From Bacteroidales bacterium (GTDB taxonomy: Bacteria > Bacteroidota > Bacteroidia > Bacteroidales > UBA1402), in contig DASTGN010000009.1 of the NCBI GenBank assembly GCA_035719105.1, positions 72,708 to 136,707 of the forward strand: DNA of 64,000 nucleotides, given 5' to 3'. Positions 35,446 to 50,316 of the stretch are shown piece after piece. The stretch's first letter is position 1; each line of letters starts with the position of its first letter. The notes under the pieces were generated by a model, which saw only the letters and a program-made list of their open reading frames with translations, ran no database searches and was not told where the DNA came from. Both the position numbers and the translations under genes were made by a program.

Positions 35446-35499
35446 ACGTTGGCTTGAAAATTTTGTCAAAGATACGGAATGTTTGCTAAATTTGCCTTT

Positions 35500-37992
35500 A
35501 TGAAAAGGACAATTTACACCATTATATATGTCTTTCTGGTTGTTTTCGGTTCTGTTTTGAAAGTTCATTCTATTCCTGCCATCCGAAAACCAATTGAAGT
35601 AATCCAACCCGACGGTACGAAGTTGACCCTCTTGTTGAGTGGGGATGAATACTTGCATATTGCTCAAACCGAAGATGGCTATGATCTGAAGCAAAACGAG
35701 GCGGGTTTCTATACCTATGCAACTAGAGACGCGGAAGGCAAGCTGATTTCCAGTGATCGAATCGCTCGCAATTTGGCCGACCGCTCCGATTCGGATGCGA
35801 CATACCTTCGTACGATCCGTTCCGACGTCAAGTTTTCTGGAACGGTATTAAATAAAGCGTTGCAAAAGCGTATGAGTGCCCGCTTGAAGGGTAGTACCTT
35901 TTTACGGAGCAGTTCCAGCATTCCTGCGGGTTTGATTGCAGATTATCCCAGAACTGGATCTCCAAAATCCCTGGTCATCCTAGTTAATTTCTTGGATATA
36001 AGCTTTCAAACCAACAACAACAGTTCAGCTTTCAACGACATGTTGAACAAACCCGGATACAACGTCAACAAACATGTGGGCAGTGTAAAAGACTATTACA
36101 AATACAATTCCGGCGGATTATTTGATCCGAATTTCGTCGTTGTTGGTCCGGTAATCGTTCCTCATTCAGAATCTTATTACGGCGCAAACGATTCTCTAGG
36201 CAACGACAAACGTCCTGCTCAAATGGTTTATGATGCTTGTGTAAAGGCAGCAGATTTGGTGGATTTCGCCGAATTTGACGCTGACGTCAATGGGACTGTG
36301 GACAACATCTTTATTTACTATGCAGGCAAAGGTGAAGCAGACGGAGGTGGTGAAAATACGATATGGCCACATTCCTTTTCATTATCAAACGCCGGTTTAA
36401 ATTTGACGTTGGATGGTAAAAAAATTGATGACTATGCCTGCAGTAGTGAATTGGATGGTTTTACCGGAAAAATGACCGGCATAGGTGGGTTCACACACGA
36501 ATACAGCCACATACTGGGGTTGGCGGACATGTATGATGTGGATTACAATCAATACAATGGACAGGGCTTTGACTTGAATTACTGGTCGTTGATGGCTTGG
36601 GGTTCTTACAACAACGAATCTTGTACACCGCCCTGTTTGTCATTGCCTGAACGCTATTTGTTGGGGTGGGCCACTCCTACCGAACTGGATCCCTCACAGA
36701 CGGTGACATTGTCTGACTTTGGGTCCACCAATAACGGCTGTATGATTAAAACAGATAATGACGGTGAATATTTTCTTCTTGAAAATCGGCAGCAAACCAA
36801 GAATGTTTGGGATGCCTATTTGCCTTATCACGGGTTGCTTATCTACCACTTGGATTTAAGAACGGATCAAACCCTCTTGGTTAATTACTGGGGAACGACG
36901 TATTCGTTTCGACCGAGTGAAATGTGGAGGTACAATGTCGTCAATGCGGTGGCCAATCACCAATGTTGCGACCTGGAAGAAGCGGACAATCAGCGTTTGT
37001 TTAGAACCGGAAGCAACGAAACCAGTTATTTGAACAATTTAAAAGGTGATCCGTTTCCAGGAACAGCAGGAATCACTCAATTTACAGATTATTCATTGCC
37101 TTCAATGAAGTCTTGGAGTGGCGCAAACCTTACTAAGCCCATAACTGCTATCACGGAGTCGAATGGGGAGATACAATTTAAATTTAAGGATTTTTCTGGT
37201 TTTAACAAATCGCCGACGATATTGGCCGCCACTGAAGTTTGGCCCTATTCATTCACGGCATTGTGGAATTCTGTCAATAATGCCACTGGGTATTTCATTG
37301 ACGTTTTCACCTTAGACAAATCTAAAAATCCGTATGAGAAGGTTTTTTTGAGTGATTACCAAAGCAGATTGGTTACCGACACAGCTTTATCGGTTGTGGT
37401 ACCAGACGACTTGACCACCTATTATTATCAGGTTAGAGCTACGATCAACAATCAACTTTTCACAGTCCTCTCCGATAGCATGTCTGTGACGACGACGGAT
37501 GGAAAACCTGTAGCCCTGCCGGCCACTTTGATTGAGCCGTTTACGTTTAAAGCCAATTGGAATTCACCCCAGTATGCCACTGGATTTTATTTGGACGTTT
37601 TTTCAATTGATGAAACAACCAACGACACCTCCTGGACTGCGGGCTATCACAATTTATTCTTGACTAAGAACTTTCAGACCATCCGTGAACTGGATGACCA
37701 AACTTCCTATCGATATCGAGTACGGGCAACGAACGGAATAACCATTTCCAGAAGTTCTGATGAAATGCGTTTGACGACCGCCAAAGCTTCCGGAATTCTA
37801 GCATATGTATCTGATAGAGTATTGAATTTGAAGGGAATGGACAAGGGTGGAAAAGTGTTGATTCATTCTTTGGATGGGAAGTTGGTCCTGACCTCTTTTT
37901 CCAATCGAATCTACCTGGGCCGACCCGGCATTTACCTCATCACAGCGTCCTTCAATGGCAAACTAAAACAATTGAAGCTACTGGTTCCTTAA
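35500..37992 (+). CDS. Secreted M6 (immune inhibitor A-like) metalloprotease with FN3-like repeats and T9SS C-terminal sorting domain
   Basis: The zinc motif is HEYSHILGLADMYD. Two FN3-like repeats are present (FTALWNS, YYYQVRA; FKANWNS, YRYRVRA). The C-terminal ~80 aa beta-rich domain ends in KLKQLKLLVP. Confidence 0.8.
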   Translation: MKRTIYTIIYVFLVVFGSVLKVHSIPAIRKPIEVIQPDGTKLTLLLSGDEYLHIAQTEDGYDLKQNEAGFYTYATRDAEGKLISSDRIARNLADRSDSDATYLRTIRSDVKFSGTVLNKALQKRMSARLKGSTFLRSSSSIPAGLIADYPRTGSPKSLVILVNFLDISFQTNNNSSAFNDMLNKPGYNVNKHVGSVKDYYKYNSGGLFDPNFVVVGPVIVPHSESYYGANDSLGNDKRPAQMVYDACVKAADLVDFAEFDADVNGTVDNIFIYYAGKGEADGGGENTIWPHSFSLSNAGLNLTLDGKKIDDYACSSELDGFTGKMTGIGGFTHEYSHILGLADMYDVDYNQYNGQGFDLNYWSLMAWGSYNNESCTPPCLSLPERYLLGWATPTELDPSQTVTLSDFGSTNNGCMIKTDNDGEYFLLENRQQTKNVWDAYLPYHGLLIYHLDLRTDQTLLVNYWGTTYSFRPSEMWRYNVVNAVANHQCCDLEEADNQRLFRTGSNETSYLNNLKGDPFPGTAGITQFTDYSLPSMKSWSGANLTKPITAITESNGEIQFKFKDFSGFNKSPTILAATEVWPYSFTALWNSVNNATGYFIDVFTLDKSKNPYEKVFLSDYQSRLVTDTALSVVVPDDLTTYYYQVRATINNQLFTVLSDSMSVTTTDGKPVALPATLIEPFTFKANWNSPQYATGFYLDVFSIDETTNDTSWTAGYHNLFLTKNFQTIRELDDQTSYRYRVRATNGITISRSSDEMRLTTAKASGILAYVSDRVLNLKGMDKGGKVLIHSLDGKLVLTSFSNRIYLGRPGIYLITASFNGKLKQLKLLVP

Positions 37993-38001
37993 ATTTATTT
38001 T

Positions 38002-41000
38002 ATGAAAGACACCCTTCGAAAAATCGTTGATCTATTTTTTTCCATGGTGACGACCGTTGTGCTATTGTTGTTTTACGCATTTGGAATCGGTTATGCGACT
38101 TTTGTTGAAAATGCACAAGGCACCGAAGTAGCCAAAGCATTGATATACAACGCACACTGGCTGGAATGCGTCTATCTGTTGTTGGTTGTCAATTTAATTG
38201 GCAGCATCTTCAAATACCAATTGGTACGTAAGCAAAAAAGATCGATTTTGGTCTTCCATTTGGCATTTTTATTAATGCTCACCGGTGCTGGCATCACTCG
38301 GTTTAACAGTTCTGAAGGTTTGATGCACATTCGGGAAGGGCAGTCCAGCAACGAAATTAGTTCAGACAAGACTTCACTTCATATTGAGGCATATGCTGGT
38401 AACCAACGGGTTGAACGAAGCATAGAAACACAAATCAGTGAGAAATCCAAGACTTCCTTAAGTGAATCTTTGGAAGTGGGTGGAAAAACCATTACTGTTG
38501 AAAAGGAATTTTTCGTTCCGAATGCTTTTGAAACGATTGTGCCCGACCAGGAAGGGGAACCCGCCATCTCTCTATTTGTTTTGGATCAAGCGAACAACAG
38601 ACTGGATGGTATTTTGACCAAAAACAAACGAATCACTTTCCAGGATTTGACAATCGCTTTCTCTGATTCTGCAGCCTCAGCCGATGTGGTTTTTTCAGAA
38701 ACCAAACAGGGTGTTCAATTTGTTTCGAATTTGCCCGTTTCTGAAATGGGTATGATGAATCACAGTCAAAAAATGTATCAGTCGGGGCAACCGATTTTGG
38801 TTGTTGCCAAGACCTTATATACCATCAATCACCTGGTTTTGGTAATTAAGACGTATCTGCCCCAAGCCAAAATCAATCTGACTCAAGCTGTTCCAGGAGC
38901 TGATGCATCGGGTATAATGCGAGAAGGAAGAGATGCTGTCGTTTTTAAAGTCAGCGATGGCAACCAGGTGAAACGGATGAATGTGTTCAGCGATTCGAAC
39001 CCTTTGACTGAAGCTTCAAGCAGTCGGTTGGGGGACGTGAGCGTTCGTTTGTCTTATGGAGTCATGCCAAAATTGCTTCCATTTAGCATCAAGTTGCGTG
39101 ACTTTGAATTGGAGCGATATCCAGGTTCCAACAGCCCTTCATCGTATGCGAGTGAAATCACGGTGATTGATCCGGAGCGCAAAATGGTGCTGCCTTATCG
39201 GATTTTCATGAATAACATATTGAATTACAGAGGCTATCGCTTCTTCCAATCATCTTATGATCAGGATGAGCAAGGCACGATCTTATCGGTGAGTCACGAT
39301 TACTGGGGCACCCTGATCACGTATGCGGGCTATTTGATGTTGATCATTGGATTGATTTGGACACTATTCAACAAACAGAGCCGTTTTCGGACTTTACTGA
39401 AATGGAGCAGTGAACTTCAAAAGAAGCGTCAAAAAGTTTTATTCGTTTCACTGATGCTGATAACTGTTGGAGCTCAAGCGCAAACGGTGACCAAGAATCA
39501 GCATTTGAATCAAGTCGACCGATTGCTTGTTCAGGATATGAATCAAGGTCGAATTGAACCGTTCAGCACGTTTGCTTCGGATGTTTTTCGTAAGATCTCT
39601 AAAAAGACGGGTTACCATCAAGCCTCGCCTTCTGAAGTGTTGATTGGTATGATTTCAAATCCCTCTTATTGGCAAAACGAACCCATTATCAAGGTTTCCA
39701 ACGATAAATTGGAAAAGGAATTGGGTGGTATAAACGGTTATGTGGCTTTCAATCAATTGTTTGACTTTGAAAATGGAAATGCCTACAAGCTCAGTGAAAA
39801 GGTGGAAACGGTGTACCATAAGGAACCAACCTTGAGGGACAAATACGACAAGGAGATTTTGAACGTCGATGAACGGATTAATATCTGCTACGAAATTTAC
39901 ACCGGTGCCCTACCCGCTTTCTTGCCTGTTATAGGTCAGCCGGGAGCAAAATGGACTACTCTTTCAGGCGAAATGACGACTGCCCAAACCATGACCCCTT
40001 TGTTGCATCCTTACCTGGTTGCCGTATCGCAAGCATCTAAAACCGGGAATTGGCAACAAGCTGATATCGCACTTCAAAACATTTTGAATTATCAACAGCA
40101 AAACGGAGGCACGATACTGCCATCCAACACACAAATAGGTTTGGAAAAGTTCTACAACGAATGGAATATTTTTGGACTATTGGCAAAGATTTACGCCATG
40201 CTTGGTATGGTGTTGCTCCTGATGCATTTGTTTTACATCTTCAACACAAAAAGCAGTTTAGGGTTCGTTTTGGAAAAGTCCGTTTACCTATTTTGGTTGC
40301 TTTTCGCCTTATACACCATAGGTTTAGGTATTCGTTGGTACATTTCGGGGCACGCTCCCTGGAGCAATGGTTATGAGTCCATGATTTTTGTCGGATGGGC
40401 AACATCCTTGTCGGGCATTGTGTTTGCAAAACGTTCAACCGTCTCACTGGCAATCACGTCGGTGTTGGCAGGTATTATTCTGTTCGTAGCAGGTATGAGC
40501 TGGATGAACCCGGAAATCACGCCCTTGGTTCCAGTATTGAAATCGTATTGGCTCATCATTCATGTCGCAGTAATCACCTCCAGTTATGGATTCCTGGCCA
40601 TGGCTGCTTTACTCGGCTTGCTGAACTTAAGCTTGATGGTTGCACACGCAAAGGTTCGTACGGAACGATTGAGCGATAGTATTTTAGAAATCAGCTACAT
40701 CATTGAACTGGCGATGATCATTGGATTGATGTTGCTGACAGCCGGCTGTTTTATCGGTGCCGTTTGGGCAAATGAGTCGTGGGGACGTTATTGGGGCTGG
40801 GATCCCAAGGAAACCTGGGCATTAGTGAGCATCATCACCTACACCGCCATCTTGCATCTAAGAAACGTTCCTGCCGCCAACAATCGATGGGTATTGAGCA
40901 GTCTGTCGGTATTAGGGTTCAGCACCATTATCATGACCTTCTTTGGCGTTAATTATTACCTGACCGGTATGCACTCTTACGCTCAAGATAGCCCACCGGC

Positions 41001-41094
41001 AATTCCAAAGGCTGTATATTTAGTTGCTGTCGGCATCTTCGTACTGATTGCTTTTGCATACAGGGCGTATAAAAAGGAAATCAAGAATTTATGA
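38002..41094 (+). CDS. ccsBA: Fused system II cytochrome c biogenesis protein CcsBA (ResB-like plus CcsA-like)
   Basis: The protein is 1030 aa. The N-terminal ResB-like part has TM helices and a large periplasmic loop. The C-terminal part has many TM helices and the WWD motif WGRYWGWDPKETWA. Confidence 0.88.
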   Translation: MKDTLRKIVDLFFSMVTTVVLLLFYAFGIGYATFVENAQGTEVAKALIYNAHWLECVYLLLVVNLIGSIFKYQLVRKQKRSILVFHLAFLLMLTGAGITRFNSSEGLMHIREGQSSNEISSDKTSLHIEAYAGNQRVERSIETQISEKSKTSLSESLEVGGKTITVEKEFFVPNAFETIVPDQEGEPAISLFVLDQANNRLDGILTKNKRITFQDLTIAFSDSAASADVVFSETKQGVQFVSNLPVSEMGMMNHSQKMYQSGQPILVVAKTLYTINHLVLVIKTYLPQAKINLTQAVPGADASGIMREGRDAVVFKVSDGNQVKRMNVFSDSNPLTEASSSRLGDVSVRLSYGVMPKLLPFSIKLRDFELERYPGSNSPSSYASEITVIDPERKMVLPYRIFMNNILNYRGYRFFQSSYDQDEQGTILSVSHDYWGTLITYAGYLMLIIGLIWTLFNKQSRFRTLLKWSSELQKKRQKVLFVSLMLITVGAQAQTVTKNQHLNQVDRLLVQDMNQGRIEPFSTFASDVFRKISKKTGYHQASPSEVLIGMISNPSYWQNEPIIKVSNDKLEKELGGINGYVAFNQLFDFENGNAYKLSEKVETVYHKEPTLRDKYDKEILNVDERINICYEIYTGALPAFLPVIGQPGAKWTTLSGEMTTAQTMTPLLHPYLVAVSQASKTGNWQQADIALQNILNYQQQNGGTILPSNTQIGLEKFYNEWNIFGLLAKIYAMLGMVLLLMHLFYIFNTKSSLGFVLEKSVYLFWLLFALYTIGLGIRWYISGHAPWSNGYESMIFVGWATSLSGIVFAKRSTVSLAITSVLAGIILFVAGMSWMNPEITPLVPVLKSYWLIIHVAVITSSYGFLAMAALLGLLNLSLMVAHAKVRTERLSDSILEISYIIELAMIIGLMLLTAGCFIGAVWANESWGRYWGWDPKETWALVSIITYTAILHLRNVPAANNRWVLSSLSVLGFSTIIMTFFGVNYYLTGMHSYAQDSPPAIPKAVYLVAVGIFVLIAFAYRAYKKEIKNL

Positions 41095-41765
41095 ACCGAT
41101 ACCTTCATATAGCTCTGATCACCTTTTATTTTTTGGTGGTGGTAGTGGTCTTATCTTTGCTCATCTACTTTGGACTATCCTACTATCAATTGCCCATCGA
41201 GGAACGTTTTTTTCATCCCATGTACCAAATGTTGAAACCAAGCGGCTTTCTGGGTCATGGTTATGGAGTGTTTGGAACCTTGCTGATTGTAATCGGCTTG
41301 TTTTCGTACATGGCTAGGAAGCATCTGCGAATCTTTTGGGGTCTCGGTTTGTTGAAGCATTGGTTGGAGTTGCACATTTTTCTCTGCACGTTGGGTACCG
41401 AGCTCGTTGTTTTTCACACTACATTCAAATTTGGCGGACTAGTCTCTGTTGGATTCTGGAGTCTGATGATTGTGTGGTTCAGTGGTTTGATCGGCCGGTT
41501 CATCTATATTCAAATTCCATTGTCGATTGAGGGTAGAATGCTTAGTATTCAAGAGGTTCAAGAAAAAATTGAGAATTTGGAATCGGACCATCAAGATGAA
41601 AGGTTGCTCAAAAAATTGAGAAGGCAAGTAAAACATTTGGGAAGAATGAAACGAGTCTTTAAACGTTGGCATTACGCTCATTTGCCCTTTGCACTTATCA
41701 TGCTGATTATAATGATGATACACGTATCGGTGGTTTTAGTCCTGGGTTACAAATGGATTTTCTGA
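41091..41765 (+). CDS. Hypothetical polytopic membrane protein with histidines in or near TM helices
   Basis: It has about 5 hydrophobic helices. His residues occur at GHGYG, KHWLELHIF, VVFHT, WHYAH and MIHV, and there is a long charged helix. The ATGA overlap with ccsBA suggests translational coupling. Confidence 0.6.
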   Translation: MNRYLHIALITFYFLVVVVVLSLLIYFGLSYYQLPIEERFFHPMYQMLKPSGFLGHGYGVFGTLLIVIGLFSYMARKHLRIFWGLGLLKHWLELHIFLCTLGTELVVFHTTFKFGGLVSVGFWSLMIVWFSGLIGRFIYIQIPLSIEGRMLSIQEVQEKIENLESDHQDERLLKKLRRQVKHLGRMKRVFKRWHYAHLPFALIMLIIMMIHVSVVLVLGYKWIF

Positions 41766-41769
41766 AAAT

Positions 41770-43098
41770 ATGAATCAACTGATTGAATGGGGCATTTATG
41801 GCGGTGTTTTTCTGCTTGTTACATCGGTTCTTTTGGTGTACATCCTGAAGCAACGTCGCGAATCGAAGCGTTCGACAGAGAAATTGAGTATTGCCAAGGA
41901 AGAAAACTCGCATGAACCCGTTTCCATTTATCCTTTTATTGACCCGGATCGTTGTTTTAAGAGCGGTGCATGTGCCATGGCTTGTCCGGAAACCGACGTG
42001 TTGGGCATTCGACATGGCCGGGCAGTGCTTATCAATGCTTCCCATTGTGTAGGACACGGAGCATGCATGAGAGCATGTCCGGTAGAAGCCATTTCCTTGC
42101 GAATCGGAACAGAAAAAAGAGGGGTAGACCTGCCTCATCTGAATCCCAATTTCGAAACCAACGTCAAAGGCATTTATGTCGCTGGCGAATTGGGCGGGAT
42201 GGGTTTGATCAGAAATGCTGTAAAACAGGGCAAAGAAGCGGTAGACAACATTCACCATGCCATCAATAAGAAAATAGATGCGGAATTTGATTTAATCGTA
42301 GTCGGTGCCGGACCTGCCGGCATTTCGGCAACATTGCAGGCTATAAACTTGGGAATGAGCGTGTTGACTTTAGAACAAGACACTTTGGGTGGAACCGTGT
42401 ATACCTTCCCAAGGTCAAAAATTGTAATGACAGCACCCATGGACTTACCCACTTACGGCAAAGTTAAATGGAAAGAGACGACTAAGACGGACTTGTTGGA
42501 ACTTTGGCATAAGGTTCTATCAGCAAGGCACATACAAATTAAGGAAAGCACAAAAGTTATTGGAATTGAATCACAAAACGGTGCTTTTCAAGTCAAAACG
42601 AACGAGAATCAGTCTTATACATCCAGAGCTGTTTTATTGGCAATTGGTCGAAGGGGGTCCCCACGAAAATTGAACATTCCTGGTGAGTTATGTGAGAAAG
42701 TAGCCTATCGTTTGCTTGAACCCGAAGAAATCACCGGTAAACGCATCGTCGTAGTCGGTGGAGGGGATTCAGCCATTGAAGCTGCACTTGCCCTGGCGGA
42801 TCATAACGAAGTCATTCTCTCCTATCGTGGCGAGGCATTTAATCGAATTAAAGCAGGCAATGCCCGAAAAATAAGCGATGCAATCAAGACTGGGTTAATA
42901 CCAGTTTTATTCAATTCAAACATTATTTCCATCGAAGAGCATCAAGTTCGTTATAAATTGGACGAATCGGATACCATTCATGAGCTGGAAAACGATTTAG
43001 TGTTTATATTTGCCGGAGGGGAACTTCCTGTTGAGTTTTTGAAAAAAGTGGGTGTACAGGTTACCACCAAACGAGGCGAAACAATTCAAAAAAGCTGA
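41770..43098 (+). CDS. Membrane-anchored 2x[4Fe-4S] ferredoxin-domain FAD/NAD(P)-dependent oxidoreductase
   Basis: The N-terminal TM helix is followed by KQRRESKR. The ferredoxin motifs are CFKSGACAMACP and CVGHGACMRACP. The dinucleotide folds are LIVVGAGPAGISA and IVVVGGGDSAIEAA. Confidence 0.8.
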   Translation: MNQLIEWGIYGGVFLLVTSVLLVYILKQRRESKRSTEKLSIAKEENSHEPVSIYPFIDPDRCFKSGACAMACPETDVLGIRHGRAVLINASHCVGHGACMRACPVEAISLRIGTEKRGVDLPHLNPNFETNVKGIYVAGELGGMGLIRNAVKQGKEAVDNIHHAINKKIDAEFDLIVVGAGPAGISATLQAINLGMSVLTLEQDTLGGTVYTFPRSKIVMTAPMDLPTYGKVKWKETTKTDLLELWHKVLSARHIQIKESTKVIGIESQNGAFQVKTNENQSYTSRAVLLAIGRRGSPRKLNIPGELCEKVAYRLLEPEEITGKRIVVVGGGDSAIEAALALADHNEVILSYRGEAFNRIKAGNARKISDAIKTGLIPVLFNSNIISIEEHQVRYKLDESDTIHELENDLVFIFAGGELPVEFLKKVGVQVTTKRGETIQKS

Positions 43099-44688
43099 AT
43101 GAAAAAACACTTTCTGCTTTCTATTTGTCTTCTAAGCATTTTCACGCTGTCCGCTCAGATATCTCCGGGTGAATTAAGCAATGCTCACGCCAATCTGGAA
43201 GGGGTAAGCAATTGTACCAACTGCCACACGGTGGGCAATAAAGTGACTAACGATCATTGTTTGGCCTGTCATCCGGAAATTCGCTCCAATCAAGCTACCA
43301 AAAAGGGATATCACGGTTCCGTCGATGTAATGGGGAAAAATTGTTTCGCTTGCCACAACGAACATCATGGTCGCACCTTTCGGTTGATCAATTTCAATAA
43401 AAAAACGTTTGATCATCGAAAAACGGGCTTCGAGTTAAAGGGGGTGCACGCTACGTTGGATTGCCAGAATTGTCACCAGGCTGAGCACATTGCCAATGTC
43501 AAACTGAAGCAGAAACGATCCACCTATTTAGGTTTAAACAAAAACTGCCTGACTTGCCACGATGACTTCCACCAAGGTAACATGTCGTCGAACTGTTTGG
43601 AATGTCATCGTTTTGATAGTTTTAAAAACCCAAAAGCTTTTGACCACAACAAAACCCATTTCCCTTTGCTCGGCAAGCATAAAACGTTGAATTGTAAAGA
43701 GTGTCACAAAAATGAACTTGTTCATGGGAAAATCAGACAAGGTTTCAAAAACTTGAGATTTGCGAACTGCAATGCTTGTCACCAGGATGTGCACGATAAT
43801 AAATTCGGCCAAAATTGTAAGAAGTGTCATCAAGAAAATTCGTTCACCAGCATTCGAAATGATAGTGTTTTTAATCACGACAAGACTGATTTTCCACTTT
43901 TGGGGAAACATCGGCTATTGGAATGCAAGCAATGTCATCAATCGGGCAATATGACCAAACCGTTGAAACACGGTCGATGTTCAGACTGCCACCAAGACAT
44001 TACTCACCGAGGTGAATTCGCTGTAAATGGAAAGTCTCCTGATTGTGCCGAATGTCACGACAACAACGGATTCCTTCCTTCCACTTATACGGTGGAAAGA
44101 CACAATGCCTCGGCGTTCAAGCTTTCCGGAGCACACGAAGCAACATCCTGCATGACGTGTCACTACAAGGAAGGCAACTGGCATTTTCGTACTATCGGCA
44201 AAAAGTGTGTGGATTGTCATAAAGACGAACATCAAGGTTTAATTTCAGAGAAGTTTTATAAGCAGGCAACTTGTACCGAATGTCATAATGAATCTAACTG
44301 GAAAACGGTATCGTTTGATCACAATCAAACCAAATTCAAACTGGATGGAAAACATGCGGAACTGGCCTGCAAAGCTTGCCATTATGCTAAAAATGATCGG
44401 GGCGAAATCGTTCAAAAATTCGAGGGCCTTTCTACGAATTGCAATGCTTGTCATACAGACGAGCACGCCGGTCAATTCGAAGTGGACGGAAAAACTGATT
44501 GTGCGCGATGTCACCAAACGAGCCGTTGGAAAGACTCTAAATTTGATCACAATTCTTCACGATTTAAGCTGGAAGGGGCTCACCAGGCAGTTGCATGTGC
44601 CGAATGTCACAAATTAATATCAACTCCAAAAGGTACGTTTGTCGAATACAAATTTAAAGACATCGAATGCTCAAGGTGTCATCAATAA
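43099..44688 (+). CDS. Multiheme c-type cytochrome with 20 CxxCH motifs (c3/c7-like repeats)
   Basis: It has a signal peptide. I counted 20 CxxCH motifs by eye in 529 aa. The module FDHxxTxFxLxGxHxxxxCxxCH recurs. Confidence 0.9.
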   Translation: MKKHFLLSICLLSIFTLSAQISPGELSNAHANLEGVSNCTNCHTVGNKVTNDHCLACHPEIRSNQATKKGYHGSVDVMGKNCFACHNEHHGRTFRLINFNKKTFDHRKTGFELKGVHATLDCQNCHQAEHIANVKLKQKRSTYLGLNKNCLTCHDDFHQGNMSSNCLECHRFDSFKNPKAFDHNKTHFPLLGKHKTLNCKECHKNELVHGKIRQGFKNLRFANCNACHQDVHDNKFGQNCKKCHQENSFTSIRNDSVFNHDKTDFPLLGKHRLLECKQCHQSGNMTKPLKHGRCSDCHQDITHRGEFAVNGKSPDCAECHDNNGFLPSTYTVERHNASAFKLSGAHEATSCMTCHYKEGNWHFRTIGKKCVDCHKDEHQGLISEKFYKQATCTECHNESNWKTVSFDHNQTKFKLDGKHAELACKACHYAKNDRGEIVQKFEGLSTNCNACHTDEHAGQFEVDGKTDCARCHQTSRWKDSKFDHNSSRFKLEGAHQAVACAECHKLISTPKGTFVEYKFKDIECSRCHQ

Positions 44689-45893
44689 TGGTAGCCTTGC
44701 TGATATCAGCTCATTTATCAGGGCAATCTCCCCACGGAAATGCTTTGAGGGTGAGTTGTCATGTTTGTCATACGACAGAGAATTGGAAAGTCAAGGAAAA
44801 GGGATTCGATCACCATACTACCTCGTTTAAATTGGATGGACAGCATAAAGATGTTTCCTGCAAGACTTGCCACCCATCCTTGGTTTTTACTGATGCTCAG
44901 ACAGATTGTGCTTCCTGTCATAAGGATGTCCACCAAGAAACGGTGGGTCGAGATTGCGACCGTTGCCACAACACGACTTCCTGGATGGTCGGCAAAATAA
45001 GGGAAATCCACCGTCTGACGCGTTTTCCATTGGAGGGTGGACACGCCGGCGTAGATTGTAACCAGTGCCACAAATCGGGTTCTCGGCTTCGGTTTGACCC
45101 GATAAGTACGGAATGTGAGTCTTGTCACTTAAAAGATTACAACGCTACGACGAATCCGGCACATGCTGTAGCACAGTTTCCAACCGATTGCAAGATGTGT
45201 CACGATGAAACGGATTGGAAAAACGCTTCGTTTGATCACAATTCCACCACCAGTTTTCCTTTAAGGGGAGGGCATCTGGGACTTAATTGCAATCAGTGTC
45301 ATTCACAGGGTTTTGCAGGGACTGCAACGGCCTGCGTTGCTTGCCACCAAAAGGATTTCAACACCACCATCAACCCCTCCCATTCGGCGGCGGGGTTCAG
45401 CGCCGATTGTCAAACTTGCCATACGGAAACTTCCTGGAAACCCAGTTCGTACAACCATAACACGGCAACCAGCTTTCCATTGAACGGGGGACACCGAGCA
45501 GTGAGTTGCAATCAATGTCATACGCAGGGCTTTGTAGGAACGTCCACCGCTTGTGTGGCATGTCACCTGAAGGATTACAATGCCACGACAAATCCGGCCC
45601 ATGCCACAGCCAAATTTCCTACCAATTGCGAGACTTGCCATACGACTACAACCTGGACAACTTCCACCTTTAATCATGACAGCCAAAATTTCCCGATTTA
45701 TAGTGGAAGGCACCGCGGGCTATGGACTACGTGTACGCAATGCCACACCAGTCCGGCGAACTTTGCTGTTTTCTCCTGCATAACCTGTCATGAGCACAAC
45801 AAAACCTCGATGGATGCCAAACACTTAGGAAGAAGTGGATACGTTTACAACAGCATCAATTGTTTAAGTTGTCACCCACGTGGAAGTACGTAA
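44667..45893 (+). CDS. Multiheme c-type cytochrome with 16 CxxCH motifs
   Basis: I counted 16 CxxCH motifs. Three tandem tri-heme modules each begin with CNQCH. The start is ambiguous between 44667 and 44688, where TAATG overlaps the upstream stop. Confidence 0.88.
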   Translation: MLKVSSIMVALLISAHLSGQSPHGNALRVSCHVCHTTENWKVKEKGFDHHTTSFKLDGQHKDVSCKTCHPSLVFTDAQTDCASCHKDVHQETVGRDCDRCHNTTSWMVGKIREIHRLTRFPLEGGHAGVDCNQCHKSGSRLRFDPISTECESCHLKDYNATTNPAHAVAQFPTDCKMCHDETDWKNASFDHNSTTSFPLRGGHLGLNCNQCHSQGFAGTATACVACHQKDFNTTINPSHSAAGFSADCQTCHTETSWKPSSYNHNTATSFPLNGGHRAVSCNQCHTQGFVGTSTACVACHLKDYNATTNPAHATAKFPTNCETCHTTTTWTTSTFNHDSQNFPIYSGRHRGLWTTCTQCHTSPANFAVFSCITCHEHNKTSMDAKHLGRSGYVYNSINCLSCHPRGST

Positions 45894-45949
45894 TTTCGAT
45901 TAAAATCCTTAGATTTACAGCATTAAAATTCGATTTTTTTTTTCGACCG

Positions 45950-46975
45950 ATGCATCGATTTATTGTACTCCTTTCCATTTTGATCCTGACGTTAAATTGT
46001 TACGCCATGAAATCACCTCATGGAAAAAACTTAACATTGAAGTGTAGCGATTGCCATACCACGGAACAATGGAATGAAGTAAAACCTGAAGATTTTGATC
46101 ATCAAACGACGAAGTTTCCTTTGGTAGGCCAACATCAGATGGTTGGTTGCAAAGCATGTCATCCCACACTCGTTTTTTCGGAAGCACCAACGGAATGTTC
46201 TGAATGTCACACTGATATACACCAGCAAACGGTCGGTGCCGATTGTGCGCGTTGTCATACGCCAGAATCGTGGTTGGTAAAAAACTCTAAAAACAAGGAA
46301 ATTCATCACCAAAGTGGTTTTCCATTGGTTGGTTCACATGCTTCAGCAGAATGTCGGCGTTGTCACGTTTCAGGTTCGAATCAACGGTTTGATATAATTG
46401 ACACTGAATGTTTCAGTTGCCACCGCGACAAATACGAGGCTACTGTCAACCCAAACCACCGAACGGCGGGTTTTGGAACCGACTGCAATCGATGCCACAA
46501 TATGGTTGGAAGGCAGTGGAACGGTTCGAATCAGGGTTTTGAACATGGATTTTTCCCCTTAAAAGGTGGTCATCAGCTTGAATGTGTGCGGTGTCATGCC
46601 AGCGGCACTTATACCGGATTATCCAAAGAATGCGTTTCCTGCCATCAAGCGGACTACAACGCCACAACAAACCCGAATCACGCCGGTTCAGGTTTCTCCA
46701 CAGAATGCCAGACTTGTCACAACATTACTTCTTGGAAGGGGGCTACTTTTGACCATGATGCGAACTTCTTCCCCATTTATAGTGGCAAACACAAGGGTCA
46801 ATGGAATGCCTGTACAGATTGCCACACCAATGCCTCAAACTATGGAACTTTTACTTGCCTGAATTGCCATGCACACAGTAAAACAGCCATGGATTCCAAA
46901 CATCGGGAAGTTGGTGGATATTCTTACATCAGTTCCAGTTGCATGACTTGTCACCCACGAGGTAATGTCAATTAA
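45950..46975 (+). CDS. Multiheme c-type cytochrome with 13 CxxCH motifs, paralogous to the 16-heme protein
   Basis: The signal peptide is MHRFIVLLSILILTLNCYA. It has 13 CxxCH motifs. Its C-terminal module (FPIYSGKHKGQW, CLNCHAH, CMTCHPRG) matches the C-terminus of the upstream gene. Confidence 0.88.
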   Translation: MHRFIVLLSILILTLNCYAMKSPHGKNLTLKCSDCHTTEQWNEVKPEDFDHQTTKFPLVGQHQMVGCKACHPTLVFSEAPTECSECHTDIHQQTVGADCARCHTPESWLVKNSKNKEIHHQSGFPLVGSHASAECRRCHVSGSNQRFDIIDTECFSCHRDKYEATVNPNHRTAGFGTDCNRCHNMVGRQWNGSNQGFEHGFFPLKGGHQLECVRCHASGTYTGLSKECVSCHQADYNATTNPNHAGSGFSTECQTCHNITSWKGATFDHDANFFPIYSGKHKGQWNACTDCHTNASNYGTFTCLNCHAHSKTAMDSKHREVGGYSYISSSCMTCHPRGNVN

Positions 46976-46985
46976 TCACAGATCA

Positions 46986-48563
46986 ATGAGAAAACTGACG
47001 CTACTCCTACTTATTTGTCTGTCGACAACAACTTTTGGTCAAAAGATCATAAAGGGTTCGATTACTTTTCGGAGTTCACAAAATATCTATGTGATGTTTG
47101 AGAACACGGAAGGAATACAAGTCGGTGACACCTTGTTTTCTGAAGTGAAAGGTTGGTTGGTTCCCGTGTTGCTCGTAAAGAGTTTTTCTTCTACTTCCTG
47201 CCTTTGTGTTGCATTGAGCAAACTTAAAATGGATGAGACGGCGTTTATCCAAGCTAAAATTCCAGTTGTAGAAGAAGCGTTGCCCGTCCATCAGACTGCT
47301 GATGAATTGGAGGCCACCAAATCTGTCAATGCTGATGCAATCGGTGCAGTTCTTCAGGGCAAAAAAGTAAAAAAGCTACAACCGCAGTTTGATGGACGAC
47401 TTTCACTGACTTCTTATTCGAACCTGACGGGTGTCAATTCCAATCAGCGTTTTCGATACAACCTTTCTTTTAATGCACAAAACATAGACAGTTCAGCCTT
47501 TTCTGCAGAAAGTTATTTGTCGTTCTCGCACCGATTGGGTGAATGGAAGGGTATTACGGATGCTTTGAAGGTGTACAGTTTGGCTGTGAATTATCATTCT
47601 GGAAATCACGCTGTGACGTTGGGTCGAAAAATCAATCTGAATATGGCGAACATTGGCGCGGTTGACGGCCTCCAATATGAATACACCAGGAAAGCGTTGA
47701 CTTTTGGCCTCATGGGAGGATCCAGACCGGATTATTACACTTATGGGTTGAACCCGGACTTGCTGCAATTTGGCGCATTTGTAAGCCATCATGTTCAAAT
47801 GGACAAAGGGGATATGCAAACGTCGCTGGCCCTATTCAACCAAATGAATCAATTCAAAACGGACAGACGTTTTGCTTACCTTCAGCACAGCAACGCATTG
47901 CTTAAAAACTTGAATGTATTTGCCTCTGCCGAAGTGGATTTCTACACCCTAGTGAATCTTCAACCAACTTCAACGTTTGACTTGACAAGTGCCTATGTAT
48001 CTTTGCGGTATAAGCCATTTTCCAATTTGTCCCTCTCTTTGTCCTACGATGCCAGAAAGAACATTTACTACTATGAGACTTTTAAGAATCAGATTGACAG
48101 CATCATAGACCGTGAAACCAGACAAGGTCTGCGTTTTAATTTCAACTATAGGCCATTTAAGAAGATCGTTTGGGGTGGAAATGCGGGTTATCGATCCAAG
48201 AAATCGGATCGCACGCCTTCGGTCAATGCCAACACCTATTTGTCTTATATGGAATTGCCTTGGATTAATGCCTATGGCACATTGGATTTGACGTATTTGA
48301 AAACCAGCTACTTGAATGGTATGGTTTACGGTGCCTCCCTATCAAAGGAATTGTTTGATGGTAAAGTTTACGGGGAATTGAAATATAGGCTAGTTAACTA
48401 CGACTATACCAACTCCAGTAGCACCTTGAGACAAAACATTGCGGAATGCAGTCTTTCTTGGCGAATGGCTAAAAAATTGATGCTTTCTGTCGATTTTGAA
48501 GGAACGATGGAATCAATCGGAAATTCGGCAAGAGTTTATTTGAATCTCACCCGGCGATTTTAA
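46986..48563 (+). CDS. Predicted outer-membrane beta-barrel protein of unknown family
   Basis: The signal peptide is MRKLTLLLLICLSTTTFGQ. Alternating hydrophobic beta-strand patterns run throughout, rich in aromatics, G, N and S. The C-terminus is YLNLTRRF, ending in Phe. Confidence 0.65.
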   Translation: MRKLTLLLLICLSTTTFGQKIIKGSITFRSSQNIYVMFENTEGIQVGDTLFSEVKGWLVPVLLVKSFSSTSCLCVALSKLKMDETAFIQAKIPVVEEALPVHQTADELEATKSVNADAIGAVLQGKKVKKLQPQFDGRLSLTSYSNLTGVNSNQRFRYNLSFNAQNIDSSAFSAESYLSFSHRLGEWKGITDALKVYSLAVNYHSGNHAVTLGRKINLNMANIGAVDGLQYEYTRKALTFGLMGGSRPDYYTYGLNPDLLQFGAFVSHHVQMDKGDMQTSLALFNQMNQFKTDRRFAYLQHSNALLKNLNVFASAEVDFYTLVNLQPTSTFDLTSAYVSLRYKPFSNLSLSLSYDARKNIYYYETFKNQIDSIIDRETRQGLRFNFNYRPFKKIVWGGNAGYRSKKSDRTPSVNANTYLSYMELPWINAYGTLDLTYLKTSYLNGMVYGASLSKELFDGKVYGELKYRLVNYDYTNSSSTLRQNIAECSLSWRMAKKLMLSVDFEGTMESIGNSARVYLNLTRRF

Positions 48564-48584
48564 AAACAATGGTTTTTTGTATAT

Positions 48585-48627
48585 GAAAATGGCGTCCCAA
48601 TTGTTAATTTGAGACGCCATTTTGTTT
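48585..48627. terminator. Bidirectional hairpin terminator between the cytochrome cluster and araB
   Basis: GAAAATGGCGTC pairs with GACGCCATTTTG across a 16-nt loop. A/T runs lie on both sides. Confidence 0.75.
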
Positions 48628-48639
48628 ATTTACAATGGA

Positions 48640-50316
48640 TTACAAACTTCTATAGAAGGATTCTTCCGTAATTTGACCAAGTTTTTGGTATTCTTTATAG
48701 AGTTCAGCATACATCTTGGCTGCTTTAGGATTGGGAAGGTACTCCATCGCGAATCCTTGCCCCATAGCCTTTTGAGCCTCTTCGACTTTTGCATACTGAC
48801 CTGCAACGACTGCAGCAAACATGGCGGCACCAAAAGCACAAGCTTGGTCGCTTTTGGCAACTTTGATGGGCATATTCAGAACATCGGCCATGGTTTGCAT
48901 GACGAACGGTGATTTCAGGGAGATGCCACCAATACCGATGACACTTTCAATCTTGACTTGTTCCTCCTTAAAGCGGTCAACAATGGCTCTGGAGCCAAAG
49001 GCAGTAGCTTCCACCAACGCGCGGAACATCATGGGAGCAGTCGTACCAAGAGTCAAACCGGTTATGCTGCCCTTGACCAGCTGACTGGCGTCCGGCGTGC
49101 GGCGACCGTTCATCCAGTCGGTGGCAACGACCATGCTTTCTTTGGGATCGATGGCAGCGGCTTGTTCGGAAAGAACGGGAATGATCTTGTCCATGGCTTC
49201 AACCATGAGTTTTTGCTTGGTAACTTCGTCTATCAGACTGGATTGGCCGATAAGTTCCTCAATGGGCCAAGCCATGATGCGTTTGAACCAGGCGTAGATA
49301 TCTCCGAAAGCAGATTGACCGGCTTCCAAGCCCATCATTCCTGGAATGACGGAACCGTCTACTTGGCCGCAAATGCCTTTAACCAATTTATTCCCCACTT
49401 CTTCATTGGATGAAACAAGGATGTCGCAAGTTGAAGTACCGATGATGCGAACCAAGGTGTTGGGGGTGATTTCAGCACCAACAGCGCCCATGTGCGCATC
49501 GAATGCACCCACTCCTACAGCCACATTGGTGGAGAGTCCGAGGCGTTGAGCCCATTCTTCGGTGAGGTAGCCCACTTTAACATCACTGGCATATGTTTCC
49601 TTGAACAAACGGTCACGAAGTCCTGCCAACAGGGGATCCAAGGTTGTCAAGAACTCTTCGGAGGGCAGTCCGCCCCATTGTTCTAACCACATGGCCTTAT
49701 GCCCGGCAGCGCAACGACTGCGTTTCAGGTTTTCGGGACGGGTGTCGCCACAAATCAAGGCTGGCAACCAATCGCAGTGTTCAACAATGGAGTAGGCAGC
49801 CTTGCGGACCTTTTCATCGGCGCGAAGCACATGCAATGCTTTGGCCCAAAACCATTCCGAAGAATAAATACCGCCTTCGTAAGATGTGTAGTCGATTTTC
49901 CATTTGGAACAAAGTTCGTTAATCTCGGCAGCTTCCTTGATTCCGGTGTGGTCTTTCCACAACACAAACATGGCGTTGGGATTTTCGGCGAATTCGGGCA
50001 GTAATGCCAAGGGCGTACCATTTTTGTCTGTGAACACTGGGGTAGAACCCGTGGTGTCGAAGGACATGCCGATCACATTGGCTGCAACGGAAGGATCACA
50101 CTTTGCAAGTGCTTCTTTCACAGCATCTTCCAGGCACTCAACATAATCCTTTGGGTGTTGACGATATTGGTTGGCCGTAGGTTGGCAATAAAGGCCTTTA
50201 GCCCAACGGGGATAGTACTTGACAGCGTTTCCCTGTTCGGCACCCGTTTCAGCATCTACTATATAAGCGCGGGCAGAGTCGGTACCGTAATCCAATCCGA
50301 TAACATACTTGCTCAT
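48640..50316 (-). CDS. araB: Ribulokinase
   Basis: The FGGY-family N-terminus is YVIGLDYGTDS. At 558 aa it sits directly downstream of araA. Confidence 0.9.
   Translation of the reverse strand: MSKYVIGLDYGTDSARAYIVDAETGAEQGNAVKYYPRWAKGLYCQPTANQYRQHPKDYVECLEDAVKEALAKCDPSVAANVIGMSFDTTGSTPVFTDKNGTPLALLPEFAENPNAMFVLWKDHTGIKEAAEINELCSKWKIDYTSYEGGIYSSEWFWAKALHVLRADEKVRKAAYSIVEHCDWLPALICGDTRPENLKRSRCAAGHKAMWLEQWGGLPSEEFLTTLDPLLAGLRDRLFKETYASDVKVGYLTEEWAQRLGLSTNVAVGVGAFDAHMGAVGAEITPNTLVRIIGTSTCDILVSSNEEVGNKLVKGICGQVDGSVIPGMMGLEAGQSAFGDIYAWFKRIMAWPIEELIGQSSLIDEVTKQKLMVEAMDKIIPVLSEQAAAIDPKESMVVATDWMNGRRTPDASQLVKGSITGLTLGTTAPMMFRALVEATAFGSRAIVDRFKEEQVKIESVIGIGGISLKSPFVMQTMADVLNMPIKVAKSDQACAFGAAMFAAVVAGQYAKVEEAQKAMGQGFAMEYLPNPKAAKMYAELYKEYQKLGQITEESFYRSL

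Follow-up and report, generated by a model that had tools for sequence, protein, structure and literature searches.

Among the steps of extracellular electron transfer, the exit of electrons from the inner membrane is the one least understood outside Geobacter and Shewanella. The window analyzed here, a stretch of 64,000 nucleotides from the genome of a Bacteroidales bacterium (assembly GCA_035719105.1, contig DASTGN010000009.1), contains a cluster of genes for multihaem cytochromes, and we asked which proteins deliver electrons to it. The genome is a clean case for this question: the three cytochromes of the cluster are its only multihaem cytochromes, and the fused CcsBA protein encoded in the cluster is its only haem lyase and its single match to cytochrome c assembly genes. 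A preliminary description, made from the sequence alone, had called two open reading frames at 41091-43098 on the forward strand, which we confirm at these coordinates, and had seen in their products an unusual module in place of a quinol dehydrogenase of the NapC, CymA or NrfD type. We conclude from a sequence signature and from the gene content that the two proteins probably serve as the inner-membrane portion of a PCC3-type porin-multihaem-cytochrome cluster. We further favor, with somewhat better than even confidence, a role for them in quinone-independent export of electrons from NAD(P)H to a haem wire, for which proteins of 224 and 442 amino acids would be a compact two-protein transmembrane system.

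All of the genes described below lie on the forward strand. The start of the gene for the inner membrane protein P0001 (41091-41765; identified as an ORF and by its translation) overlaps the stop codon of the CcsBA gene (38002-41094; Pfam ResB and Cytochrom_C_asm) in an ATGA at 41091-41094, and is followed by the gene for the membrane-anchored FeS flavoprotein P0002 (41770-43098; translation and Pfam). Downstream are genes for a periplasmic cytochrome c with 20 haems (43099-44688; 20 CxxCH motifs), for cytochromes c with 16 and 13 haems (44667-46975; CxxCH counts and Pfam), and for P0126 (46965-48563), a probable outer-membrane barrel. P0126 had no match in Pfam; it is assigned from its conserved position, with orthologues at the end of the cluster in 19/20 and 36/39 related loci, and feature matches to barrel families in the Atlas score 0.86, which we treat as no more than a lead. 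The genes around the cluster are of the sugar-fermentation type.

The claim that no dehydrogenase of the NapC, CymA or NrfD type is present held for the genome as a whole. Searches for NapC/NirT (PF03264) and NrfD (PF03916), in which the controls were matched, found no match in the whole 97%-complete genome. Outside the cluster a single ORF carries two CxxCH motifs and none carries more than two, and therefore haem-c quinol dehydrogenases of the CymA, ImcH and CbcL types are excluded. The genome does encode MenA and menaquinone synthesis, Nuo, Nqr/Rnf and cytochrome bd, so that a quinone link is possible.

The AF2 model of P0001 (mean pLDDT 94) contains helices at residues 3-32, 53-78, 88-109, 116-140, 153-165 and 170-217, which we read as five transmembrane (TM) helices and one charged cytoplasmic helix. 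TM5 occupies residues 197-217 inside the last helix, hydropathy concurs with the count of five, and the model bears out the earlier picture of a 224-residue protein with five TM segments and a long charged helix. Regular-expression searches located W91-x3-H95-x13-H109 on TM3 (41361-41417), S131-G132-x-x-G135 (SGLIG) on TM4 (41481-41495), and W193-x3-H197-x13-H211 on TM5 (41667-41723), with exactly two occurrences of W-x3-H-x13-H in the protein. P0001 is an exact match to the signature reported by He, Barco, Emerson & Roden in 2017 (PMC5566968) for the "conserved inner membrane protein" of PCC3 and PCC4 clusters, namely five TM helices, SGxxG on TM4, and W-x3-H-x13-H on TM3 and TM5, in which those authors predicted two b haems. 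Because the di-haem prediction was published at that time, the module can be called unusual only in relation to Geobacter and Shewanella; for this type of cluster it is the rule.

The P0001 family comprises at least 4513 proteins in 2175 representative clusters, and a relative is encoded in at least 588 stretches of the species-genome collection. The residues that outrank all others in conservation are H95, H109, H197 and H211, which sit within TM3 and TM5, 14 positions apart on each helix. H95 and H109 are each histidine in 138/139 family representatives, H197 is histidine in 110/118 and H211 in 110/115 of those without a gap at the position, and the latter two are invariant in alignment A1. 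The four histidine-containing strings quoted in the preliminary description are all found in P0001, but their histidines fared differently: these four are conserved, whereas H90 is kept in only 22/139 representatives and H194 is moderately conserved (102/119), and the histidines beyond the four are variable across representatives. On TM4, conservation is 94% at S131 and 99% at both G132 and G135. At the level of motifs, SGxxG is found in 132/138 representatives, two copies of W-x3-H-x13-H in 98/138 and one copy in 34/138, and at least two copies of H-x13-H in 121/138.

P0001 itself had no match in Pfam or NCBIfam, and none by Foldseek or by PDB profile search. Among 64 relatives checked, the only recurring Pfam signals were DUF4405 (38/64, best 5.7e-6), Ferric_reduct (20/64, best 2.8e-5) and Ni_hydr_CYTB (18/64, best 2.7e-4), all of them sub-threshold, and the gathering cut-offs of these families were reached by neither P0001 nor the relatives. 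Shorter relatives of P0001 yield the same three families, all of which are di-haem b families. Profile searches for cytochrome b-like families had been proposed earlier; no unrelated function is known for the P0001 family. For a DUF4405 protein, binding of haem b has been demonstrated (Huang et al. 2024, PMC11334425). In structural comparison by VIA-align, the top match of the P0001 model was E. coli CybB (5oc0_A; Z 9.2, rmsd 3.5, 135 residues aligned), with the designed two-haem protein 7ah0 (Z 9.0, rmsd 2.7, 103 residues aligned) and Dcytb 5zlg (Z 8.1) also matched, values that lie in the range reached by helical bundles through arrangement alone. Judging from its sequence, P0001 is probably a two-haem b membrane protein in which four histidines on two helices make up two bis-His sites.

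P0002 matches Pyr_redox_3 (2.6e-41) and Fer4 families in Pfam. Its single N-terminal TM anchor, at approximately residues 5-27 (41782-41850; hydropathy, and an AF2 helix at 2-44), is kept in 19 orthologues and is followed by the basic stretch KQRRESKRS, from which we infer, by the positive-inside rule, an N-out, C-in orientation with the bulk of the protein facing the cytoplasm. Two FeS motifs were located by regular expression, C62-x2-S65-x2-C68-x3-C72-P (41953-41988) and C93-x2-H96-x2-C99-x3-C103-P (42046-42081); the preliminary description was right as to their number, but their spacing is C-x5-C-x3-C-P and not C-x4-C-x3-C-P. Position 65 is serine in the protein's own clade and cysteine, giving the canonical CxxCxxCxxxCP, in a more distant clade, and H96, at the second ligand position of motif 2, is invariant in 20/20 sequences. 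The ferredoxin domain scores 40.3 against Fer4_2 (cut-off 24.5) and 39.2 against Fer4_10 (cut-off 25.5). With six cysteines, P0002 departs from the eight-Cys pattern of 2x[4Fe-4S] proteins (two CxxCxxCxxxCP), and its clusters may be [3Fe-4S] or Ser/His-ligated [4Fe-4S].

A two-Rossmann FAD/NAD(P)H domain of the YpdA / TrxR-type-FNR kind, lacking CxxC, occupies 42283-43080, as identified by PDB profile and Foldseek searches. The two dinucleotide folds that had been noticed earlier correspond to GAGPAG at residue 179 and GGGDSA at residue 330. The PDB sequence matches are 7a76 (9.5e-26), 7a7b (4.8e-24) and 3ab1 (1.8e-16), and Foldseek matched 7a7b_A at 2e-22. A regular-expression search found no CxxC (C..C) anywhere in P0002, and C308, the sole cysteine outside the FeS motifs, is not conserved. 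The cut-offs for YpdA/Bdr (TIGR04018; 163.7 vs 339.9 bits) and for thioredoxin reductase (TIGR01292; 79.7 vs 343) were not reached.

The two genes are strictly linked. Among 401 Bacteroidota genomes, a P0002 orthologue is present in 42 and a P0001 orthologue in 42/42 of these; none encodes the flavoprotein without the membrane protein, and only 2 encode the membrane protein without the flavoprotein, both with an in-frame TAA in the membrane-protein gene. The flavoprotein, the 20-haem cytochrome and a larger cytochrome adjoin the membrane-protein gene in 19/20 and 39/39 loci. This distribution, always with the membrane protein and beside multihaem cytochromes, is not that of the stand-alone enzyme resembling thioredoxin reductase that had been considered at the outset. 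In nearly every related locus the 20-haem orthologue comes after the pair, and this cytochrome is the likely direct acceptor of electrons from it. Further, the ESM Atlas holds a cluster of 805-aa proteins in which 215 residues align to the P0001 model (TM 0.79) and which carry Pyr_redox_2 and Pyr_redox_3 in all members and Fer4_10 in 98%; on this structural match, it is probably a fusion of P0001-type and P0002-type proteins. Co-folding of P0001 with P0002, which the preliminary description had suggested, gave a score of 0.36, against 0.00 for the best control, at a level (0.60 or below) where we find only 7 of 80 solved complexes and both of the mismatched pairs that passed. Contact agreement between runs was at least 74% and partner pLDDT at least 72, and the pass mark is one reached by 58/80 solved complexes and 2/110 mismatched pairs. 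The co-fold lends weak support to contact between the two proteins.

These features suggest the following path, on which the preliminary reading of a b-haem relay fed by a cytoplasmic flavoprotein is supported in silico. TM2-TM5 of P0001 would form a bundle with TM3 and TM5 parallel and running in the same direction, in which the pair H95 and H197 would ligate one b haem towards the cytoplasmic side and the pair H109 and H211 another towards the periplasmic side. P0002, tethered by its N-terminal helix and facing the cytoplasm, would pass hydride from NAD(P)H onto FAD, and its two FeS clusters would split the hydride into single electrons, the cluster with the invariant His ligand being a possible exit cluster. 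Electrons would then move from the FeS clusters to the inner b haem, across the membrane to the outer b haem, to the 20-haem periplasmic cytochrome, and on through the 16- and 13-haem cytochromes to the outer-membrane barrel. Downstream of the pair there would be 49 haems, periplasmic and outer, with no quinol dehydrogenase in the path. In this way reducing equivalents would be exported, NOX-like and independently of quinone, to an acceptor outside the cell.

The alternative that survives best, though we consider it unlikely, is that P0001 is a quinone-active cytochrome b that connects the menaquinone pool and the cytochromes, with the flavoprotein as an auxiliary or alternative input. This is the model proposed by He et al. 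(PMC5566968), in which the PCC3 protein exchanges electrons with the quinone pool, with inward flow in iron oxidizers, and the genome has the menaquinone synthesis and respiratory complexes listed above. CybB, the best structural match, is a quinone-linked cytochrome b561, but no quinone site was identified on P0001, and a haem pair spanning the membrane would be needless for mere oxidation of quinol towards the periplasm. Genes for shorter P0001 relatives adjoin one for a multihaem cytochrome, and no gene for a cytoplasmic partner is seen beside them, an arrangement that fits a quinone-active ancestor; against the same role for P0001 stand the strict co-occurrence with the flavoprotein, the conserved synteny and the probable fusion of the two proteins. 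Export from NAD(P)H remains the reading that we prefer.

A chain running inward, with Fe(II) or Mn(II) outside the cell or a cathode as the electron source, has been hypothesized for the PCC3 of iron oxidizers, but we regard it as improbable here. PCC3 was first described in Fe(II) oxidizers, and its inner-membrane gene is upregulated in iron-oxidizing Sideroxydans cells; transfer from Fe(II) to NAD(P)+ would, from established bioenergetics, run uphill and against the membrane potential, in a genome with only three multihaem cytochromes and with surroundings suggestive of sugar fermentation. We give very little credence to a role in cytochrome c maturation, in which the pair would provide CcsBA with reductant for haem or apocytochrome thiols: the gene overlap with the only haem lyase of the genome is suggestive, but CcsBA adjoins the pair in just 6 of the 39 related loci and in 1 of the 20 others, and the genome encodes a DsbD-type transporter of thiol reductant at another locus. 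Equally implausible is that P0002 is an ordinary thiol-disulfide reductase present by chance, as its top sequence and fold matches to YpdA/Bdr and TrxR might suggest, given the lack of CxxC, the unconserved C308, the TIGR04018 score, the fused ferredoxin domain and TM anchor, and its constant association with the membrane protein across 401 genomes.

A broader proposal, which we hold with a little less than even confidence, is that Bacteroidota, fermentative and other, possess a quinone-independent NOX-like chain of NAD(P)H, FAD, two FeS clusters (with exit via the His-ligated cluster), two b haems, at least 20 c haems and a barrel, that would send cytoplasmic reducing equivalents straight to minerals, humics or partner cells, driven in part by the membrane potential, and that published PCC3 clusters generally receive their electrons from the cytoplasm instead of from quinol. 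If true, a widespread cluster would feed long haem wires from NAD(P)H directly, without a quinol dehydrogenase; the energy yield, direction and ecological role predicted for PCC3-type conduits would change, and their role in soils and sediments would move from respiration to redox balancing for fermenters.

Several known systems bear comparison with the pair. In NADPH oxidase and ferric reductase, electrons pass from NAD(P)H to flavin and through two b haems stacked across the membrane to an outside acceptor, and in NOX an FNR-type C-terminal dehydrogenase is fused to six TM helices, without FeS clusters. By analogy, the proposed path would share NAD(P)H, flavin and two b haems, with H-x13-H pairs on two helices; the weak Ferric_reduct matches of the P0001 family are the search result that bears on this likeness. 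It differs from NOX in that P0002 has the TrxR fold, is a separate polypeptide, places a ferredoxin domain in between and would have a multihaem cytochrome as acceptor; P0001 ends after TM5, with no fused FNR-type C-terminal domain. CymA, NapC/NirT, ImcH, CbcL and NrfD-type dehydrogenases stand, as is proposed for the pair, at the point where electrons enter a periplasmic haem wire from the inner membrane, but these are haem-c or NrfD-type proteins that oxidize quinol, and none is encoded in the present genome. The two-Rossmann FAD/NAD(P)H fold of P0002 is common to YpdA/Bdr and to TrxR-type ferredoxin-NADP+ reductases (7a7b, 7a76, 3ab1, 2zbw). Unlike these, P0002 is membrane-anchored, lacks CxxC and scores well under the YpdA cut-off, and whereas TrxR-type FNRs move electrons between NADPH and a separate ferredoxin, P0002 carries its ferredoxin in cis.

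On the membrane side, DUF4405, MsrQ and PepSY-like cytochromes (PMC11334425) share with P0001 four central, most-conserved histidines that form two haem b sites, a role that is predicted in P0001. DUF4405 proteins are described as having six TM helices, as against five, and flavinylated (ApbE) partners (PMC11334425), whereas P0001 is partnered by a FeS flavoprotein on the cytoplasmic side and by haem c wires; the likeness of the P0001 family to DUF4405 consists of recurrent weak matches below Pfam cut-offs, with none for P0001 itself.

The closest comparison is with PCC3, in which an inner membrane protein is encoded together with a barrel and two large multihaem cytochromes, one of them a periplasmic protein with about 21 haems (PMC5566968; Gallionellaceae pangenome, PMC10734462). 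The gene content of the window cluster, with 20, 16 and 13 CxxCH motifs and the probable barrel P0126, is comparable. PCC3 has been described mainly from Proteobacteria, as a set of four genes with presumed ties to iron oxidation and the quinone pool, whereas the cluster in this Bacteroidales genome has a fifth gene, for the strictly co-occurring FeS flavoprotein; "FAD", "pyridine nucleotide" and "ferredoxin" have zero occurrences in the PCC3 paper (PMC5566968), and such a partner goes unmentioned in the PCC3 literature consulted. P0001 is also a short form, of 224 against about 300 residues, without some 65-70 residues of the cytoplasmic insert between TM4 and TM5. In PCC4, or ptdABCDEFG (PMC5566968; Elbon et al., bioRxiv 10.1101/2023.11.21.568154), the cytochromes have 5, 4 and 10 haems, the FeS protein has cyclic-nucleotide-binding domains and the flavoprotein is of another type and encoded by a separate gene, whereas P0002 unites TM anchor, ferredoxin domain and TrxR-fold flavoprotein in one polypeptide. 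The logic of PCC4 is nevertheless the same, with cytoplasmic redox proteins wired via a two-haem membrane protein.

The membrane protein P0001 (224 aa, 41091-41765) and the FeS flavoprotein P0002 (442 aa, 41770-43098) are encoded in a tight run of forward-strand genes. The run begins with a fused CcsBA haem lyase (38002-41094), continues beyond the pair with cytochromes c carrying 20, 16 and 13 CxxCH motifs (43099-46975), and ends with a 532-aa protein (46965-48563) that looks like an outer-membrane barrel, a reading for which an Atlas feature search gave leads and no more. An M6-type metallopeptidase gene (35479-37992) lies 10 bp upstream of CcsBA, and the arabinose genes downstream are unrelated to the module. 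Scans of window positions 35000-49000 for sigma-70 promoters and terminators yielded counts no higher than in shuffled sequence.

In the host genome (2.95 Mb, 97% complete), no ORF besides the three cytochromes of this cluster has more than two CxxCH motifs, and CcsBA is the sole cytochrome c assembly protein; the organism's whole haem-c complement therefore lies in the cluster at 38002-48563. One other ORF, of 949 aa (G000:C6:203985-206834), reaches two motifs. The preliminary description had proposed that the pair forms an inner-membrane input module replacing a NapC/CymA/NrfD-type quinol dehydrogenase, and the absence on which it drew extends to the genome as a whole, where no protein of the NapC/NirT or NrfD families was found. 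Because MenA, cytochrome bd, a Nuo-type complex and an Nqr/Rnf-type complex are encoded, a quinone pool exists; the host genome has no recognised quinol dehydrogenase linking this pool to the cytochromes.

The two genes are strictly linked. Across 401 genomes of the phylum, a P0002 orthologue (E <= 1e-70) was present in 42, from 36 genera, and all 42 encode a full-length membrane protein; none of the 401 carries the orthologue without it. The membrane protein was found without the flavoprotein in only two genomes. Because related genomes are not independent samples, we give counts and no statistical test. At 19 of 20 loci drawn from the same search for synteny, the membrane protein, flavoprotein, a 20-haem cytochrome, a larger cytochrome (16-67 haems) and the barrel occur together, in varying order. 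A 12-row alignment led to another 39 loci, at species level, whose flanks were long enough to judge. All of them have the flavoprotein and cytochromes and 36 have the barrel; CcsBA accompanies only 6, and none contains the M6 peptidase, which we excluded from the module on that basis. Cultivable carriers include Saccharicrinis sp. FJH54 and Paludibacter jiangxiensis.

The two loci with the membrane protein only (G177:C5:99301-100173, named L002/L032, and G397:C56:46386-47135) each contain an in-frame TAA. L032 has no cytochromes nearby, suggesting that it is what is left of a decaying module. At L149:1853-3109, also with no cytochromes nearby, TM1-TM4 of the membrane protein lead straight into the C-terminal half of the flavoprotein within a 418-aa ORF, found on contigs of two samples, as though an internal deletion had run across both neighbouring genes.

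Structural modelling also bears on the association. A fold search of the ESM Atlas returned a cluster of 805-aa proteins, commonest in Myxococcota, whose model aligns to P0001 over 215 residues (TM 0.79) and whose members all contain Pyr_redox_2 and Pyr_redox_3, with Fer4_10 in 98%. These models point to proteins in which P0001 and P0002 may be fused. Sequence searches with P0001 or with A1, the alignment of its relatives, found no longer, fused forms, a weak kind of negative, and the fusion is therefore a structural lead drawn from the Atlas match only. When P0001 and P0002 were co-folded, the score was 0.36 against 0.00 for the best control; the runs share at least 74% of contacts, with a partner pLDDT of at least 72. 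Of 80 solved complexes, 58 reached the pass mark for such scores, against 2 of 110 mismatched pairs, and scores of 0.60 or below held only 7 of the 80 solved complexes, plus both mismatched pairs that passed. The co-fold thus lends weak support to a predicted contact between the two proteins.

P0001 matches nothing in Pfam or NCBIfam, yet its family, which has no name, is very large: 4513 relatives were found by word-indexed search and 2175 representative clusters, at 50% identity, by exhaustive search. An AlphaFold model built from 64 relatives is confident (mean pLDDT 94), and has five transmembrane helices, with the charged helix running on into TM5. The preliminary description had singled out histidines in or beside the helices as possible ligands of b-type haem, and four of them are conserved. 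H95 and H109 are the top-conserved residues of the protein (each in 138 of 139 representatives), and H197 (110/118) and H211 (110/115) are no less constant in sequences that include the C-terminus; the remaining histidines vary among the 139. These four fall within the only two W-x3-H-x13-H motifs of P0001, at residues 91-109 and 193-211, and SGLIG occupies residues 131-135. By the positive-inside rule, TM3 and TM5 should both run from cytoplasm to periplasm, so that H95 and H197 would sit towards the cytoplasmic side of the membrane and H109 and H211 towards the periplasmic side. This predicted arrangement is that of a two-haem transmembrane wire.

Most relatives are 261-293 aa long, with a cytoplasmic insert between TM4 and TM5. 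P0001 is a short form without some 65-70 residues of this insert (window 41540-41670, residues ~150-195), and the insert is therefore dispensable. Short relatives (~190-250 aa), which keep TM2-TM5 and both histidine pairs, occur at loci L141, L142, L146, L147 and L148 (for example L142:8986-9573 and L146:9024-9614); one family whose genomes are small (2-3 Mb) has them in 66 of 87 genomes. At the annotated loci L142 and L146 the very next gene encodes a multihaem cytochrome c (275-327 aa), and the one after it is a cation-efflux (CDF) gene. Among distant representatives, P0237 adjoins multihaem cytochromes, the contigs of P0226, P0167 and P0237 being short.

When the 64 aligned relatives of P0001 were scanned against Pfam, only di-haem b families recurred, and none of these matches reached the cut-off (DUF4405 was matched by 38 relatives, Ferric_reduct by 20 and Ni_hydr_CYTB by 18); the 190-250-aa relatives (profile E 1e-17 to 1e-26) match the same three. 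Haem b binding has been shown for a purified DUF4405 protein (PMC11334425). Against the PDB, Foldseek with the P0001 model gave no match at E <= 0.001, and a profile search with A1 gave chance coiled-coil matches only (E > 0.6). An exhaustive VIA-align search with the model placed di-haem four-helix bundles on top, namely E. coli CybB (135 residues aligned at rmsd 3.5, Z 9.2), a designed two-haem protein (103 residues at rmsd 2.7, Z 9.0) and Dcytb (Z 8.1); because helical-bundle arrangement can reach such values by itself, they are consistent with a di-haem fold and do not prove it.

P0002 begins with a single hydrophobic helix and, after it, a run of basic residues, an arrangement that is conserved in 19 orthologues and would place the rest of the protein in the cytoplasm. 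Its ferredoxin domain scores above Pfam cut-offs and has six cysteines rather than eight. The preliminary description of the two proteins was otherwise accurate, but the FeS spacing is C-x5-C-x3-C-P, not C-x4-C-x3-C-P. At the second ligand position of motif 1 (window 41953-41988), the P0002 clade has Ser and a more distant clade (L037, L041, L045, L046 and others compared) has the Cys of a canonical CxxCxxCxxxCP; in motif 2 that position is an invariant His in 20 of 20 sequences from both clades. The clusters are therefore expected to be [3Fe-4S], or [4Fe-4S] with Ser or His ligation. In [NiFe] hydrogenases the distal FeS cluster is His-ligated, and by analogy the His-ligated cluster of P0002 may be the electron exit.

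The nearest solved structures to the flavin domain are YpdA/Bdr (sequence E 9.5e-26 and 4.8e-24; Foldseek 2e-22), then TrxR-type ferredoxin-NADP+ reductases (C. tepidum FNR, 3ab1, E 1.8e-16). We take GGGDSA and the invariant Y352-R353...R359 to resemble the NADPH-binding motif of TrxR, with a putative preference for NADPH. P0002 contains no CxxC, its sole Cys outside the FeS motifs is not conserved, and it scores far under the YpdA and TrxR family cut-offs. These features speak against a disulfide reductase, and we rejected a stand-alone TrxR or YpdA because CxxC is missing and none of the 401 genomes carries the flavoprotein alone.

We consider it rather probable that electrons pass from NAD(P)H to the FAD of P0002, through its two FeS clusters to two predicted b haems of P0001, and thence to the 20-haem cytochrome and outwards, so that the input module first proposed gains support in silico. 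The main rival, which we regard as improbable, makes P0001 a quinone-active cytochrome b; the host has a quinone pool, and He et al. 2017 (PMC5566968) placed the inner membrane protein of the porin-cytochrome c cluster PCC3 at the quinone pool; on the other side stands the constant presence of the flavoprotein. Inward electron flow is less likely than this rival. So is a role for the pair in cytochrome c maturation, which the neighbouring CcsBA might suggest, and we dismissed a maturation helper because most loci do not have CcsBA next to the pair and DsbD is encoded elsewhere in the genome.

Literature searches on quinone-independent EET and on multihaem Bacteroidetes, Paludibacter and Prolixibacter turned up no account of such an input pair; an anode-enriched Bacteroidetes MAG is reported to carry multihaem cytochromes and a barrel together in one uncharacterised cluster (PMC8258643). 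In the PCC4/ptd cluster, an FAD/NAD(P) oxidoreductase and a cyclic-nucleotide-binding FeS protein stand beside a ferric-reductase-like membrane protein (PMC5566968; bioRxiv 10.1101/2023.11.21.568154). L144:6521-11694 is a paralogous cluster of this type, encoding a protein with two cyclic-nucleotide-binding domains and 4Fe-4S clusters, a 278-aa relative of P0001, a 559-aa multihaem cytochrome and an FHA-domain protein. The PCC3 inner membrane protein crosses the membrane five times, with SGxxG on TM4 and a W-x3-H-x13-H motif on each of TM3 and TM5, and two b haems were predicted for it by likeness to the ferric reductase domain (PMC5566968). P0001 shares the helix number and all of these motifs; two haems had thus been proposed before, for a family already predicted in print. 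FAD, pyridine nucleotide and ferredoxin have zero occurrences in that paper, and later PCC3 papers describe four genes and term the complex functionally unverified; the strictly linked flavoprotein is mentioned in none of them. Specific to this case are the clean genomic background and the short form of the membrane protein, and the linked flavoprotein changes how the PCC3-type membrane protein family would work.
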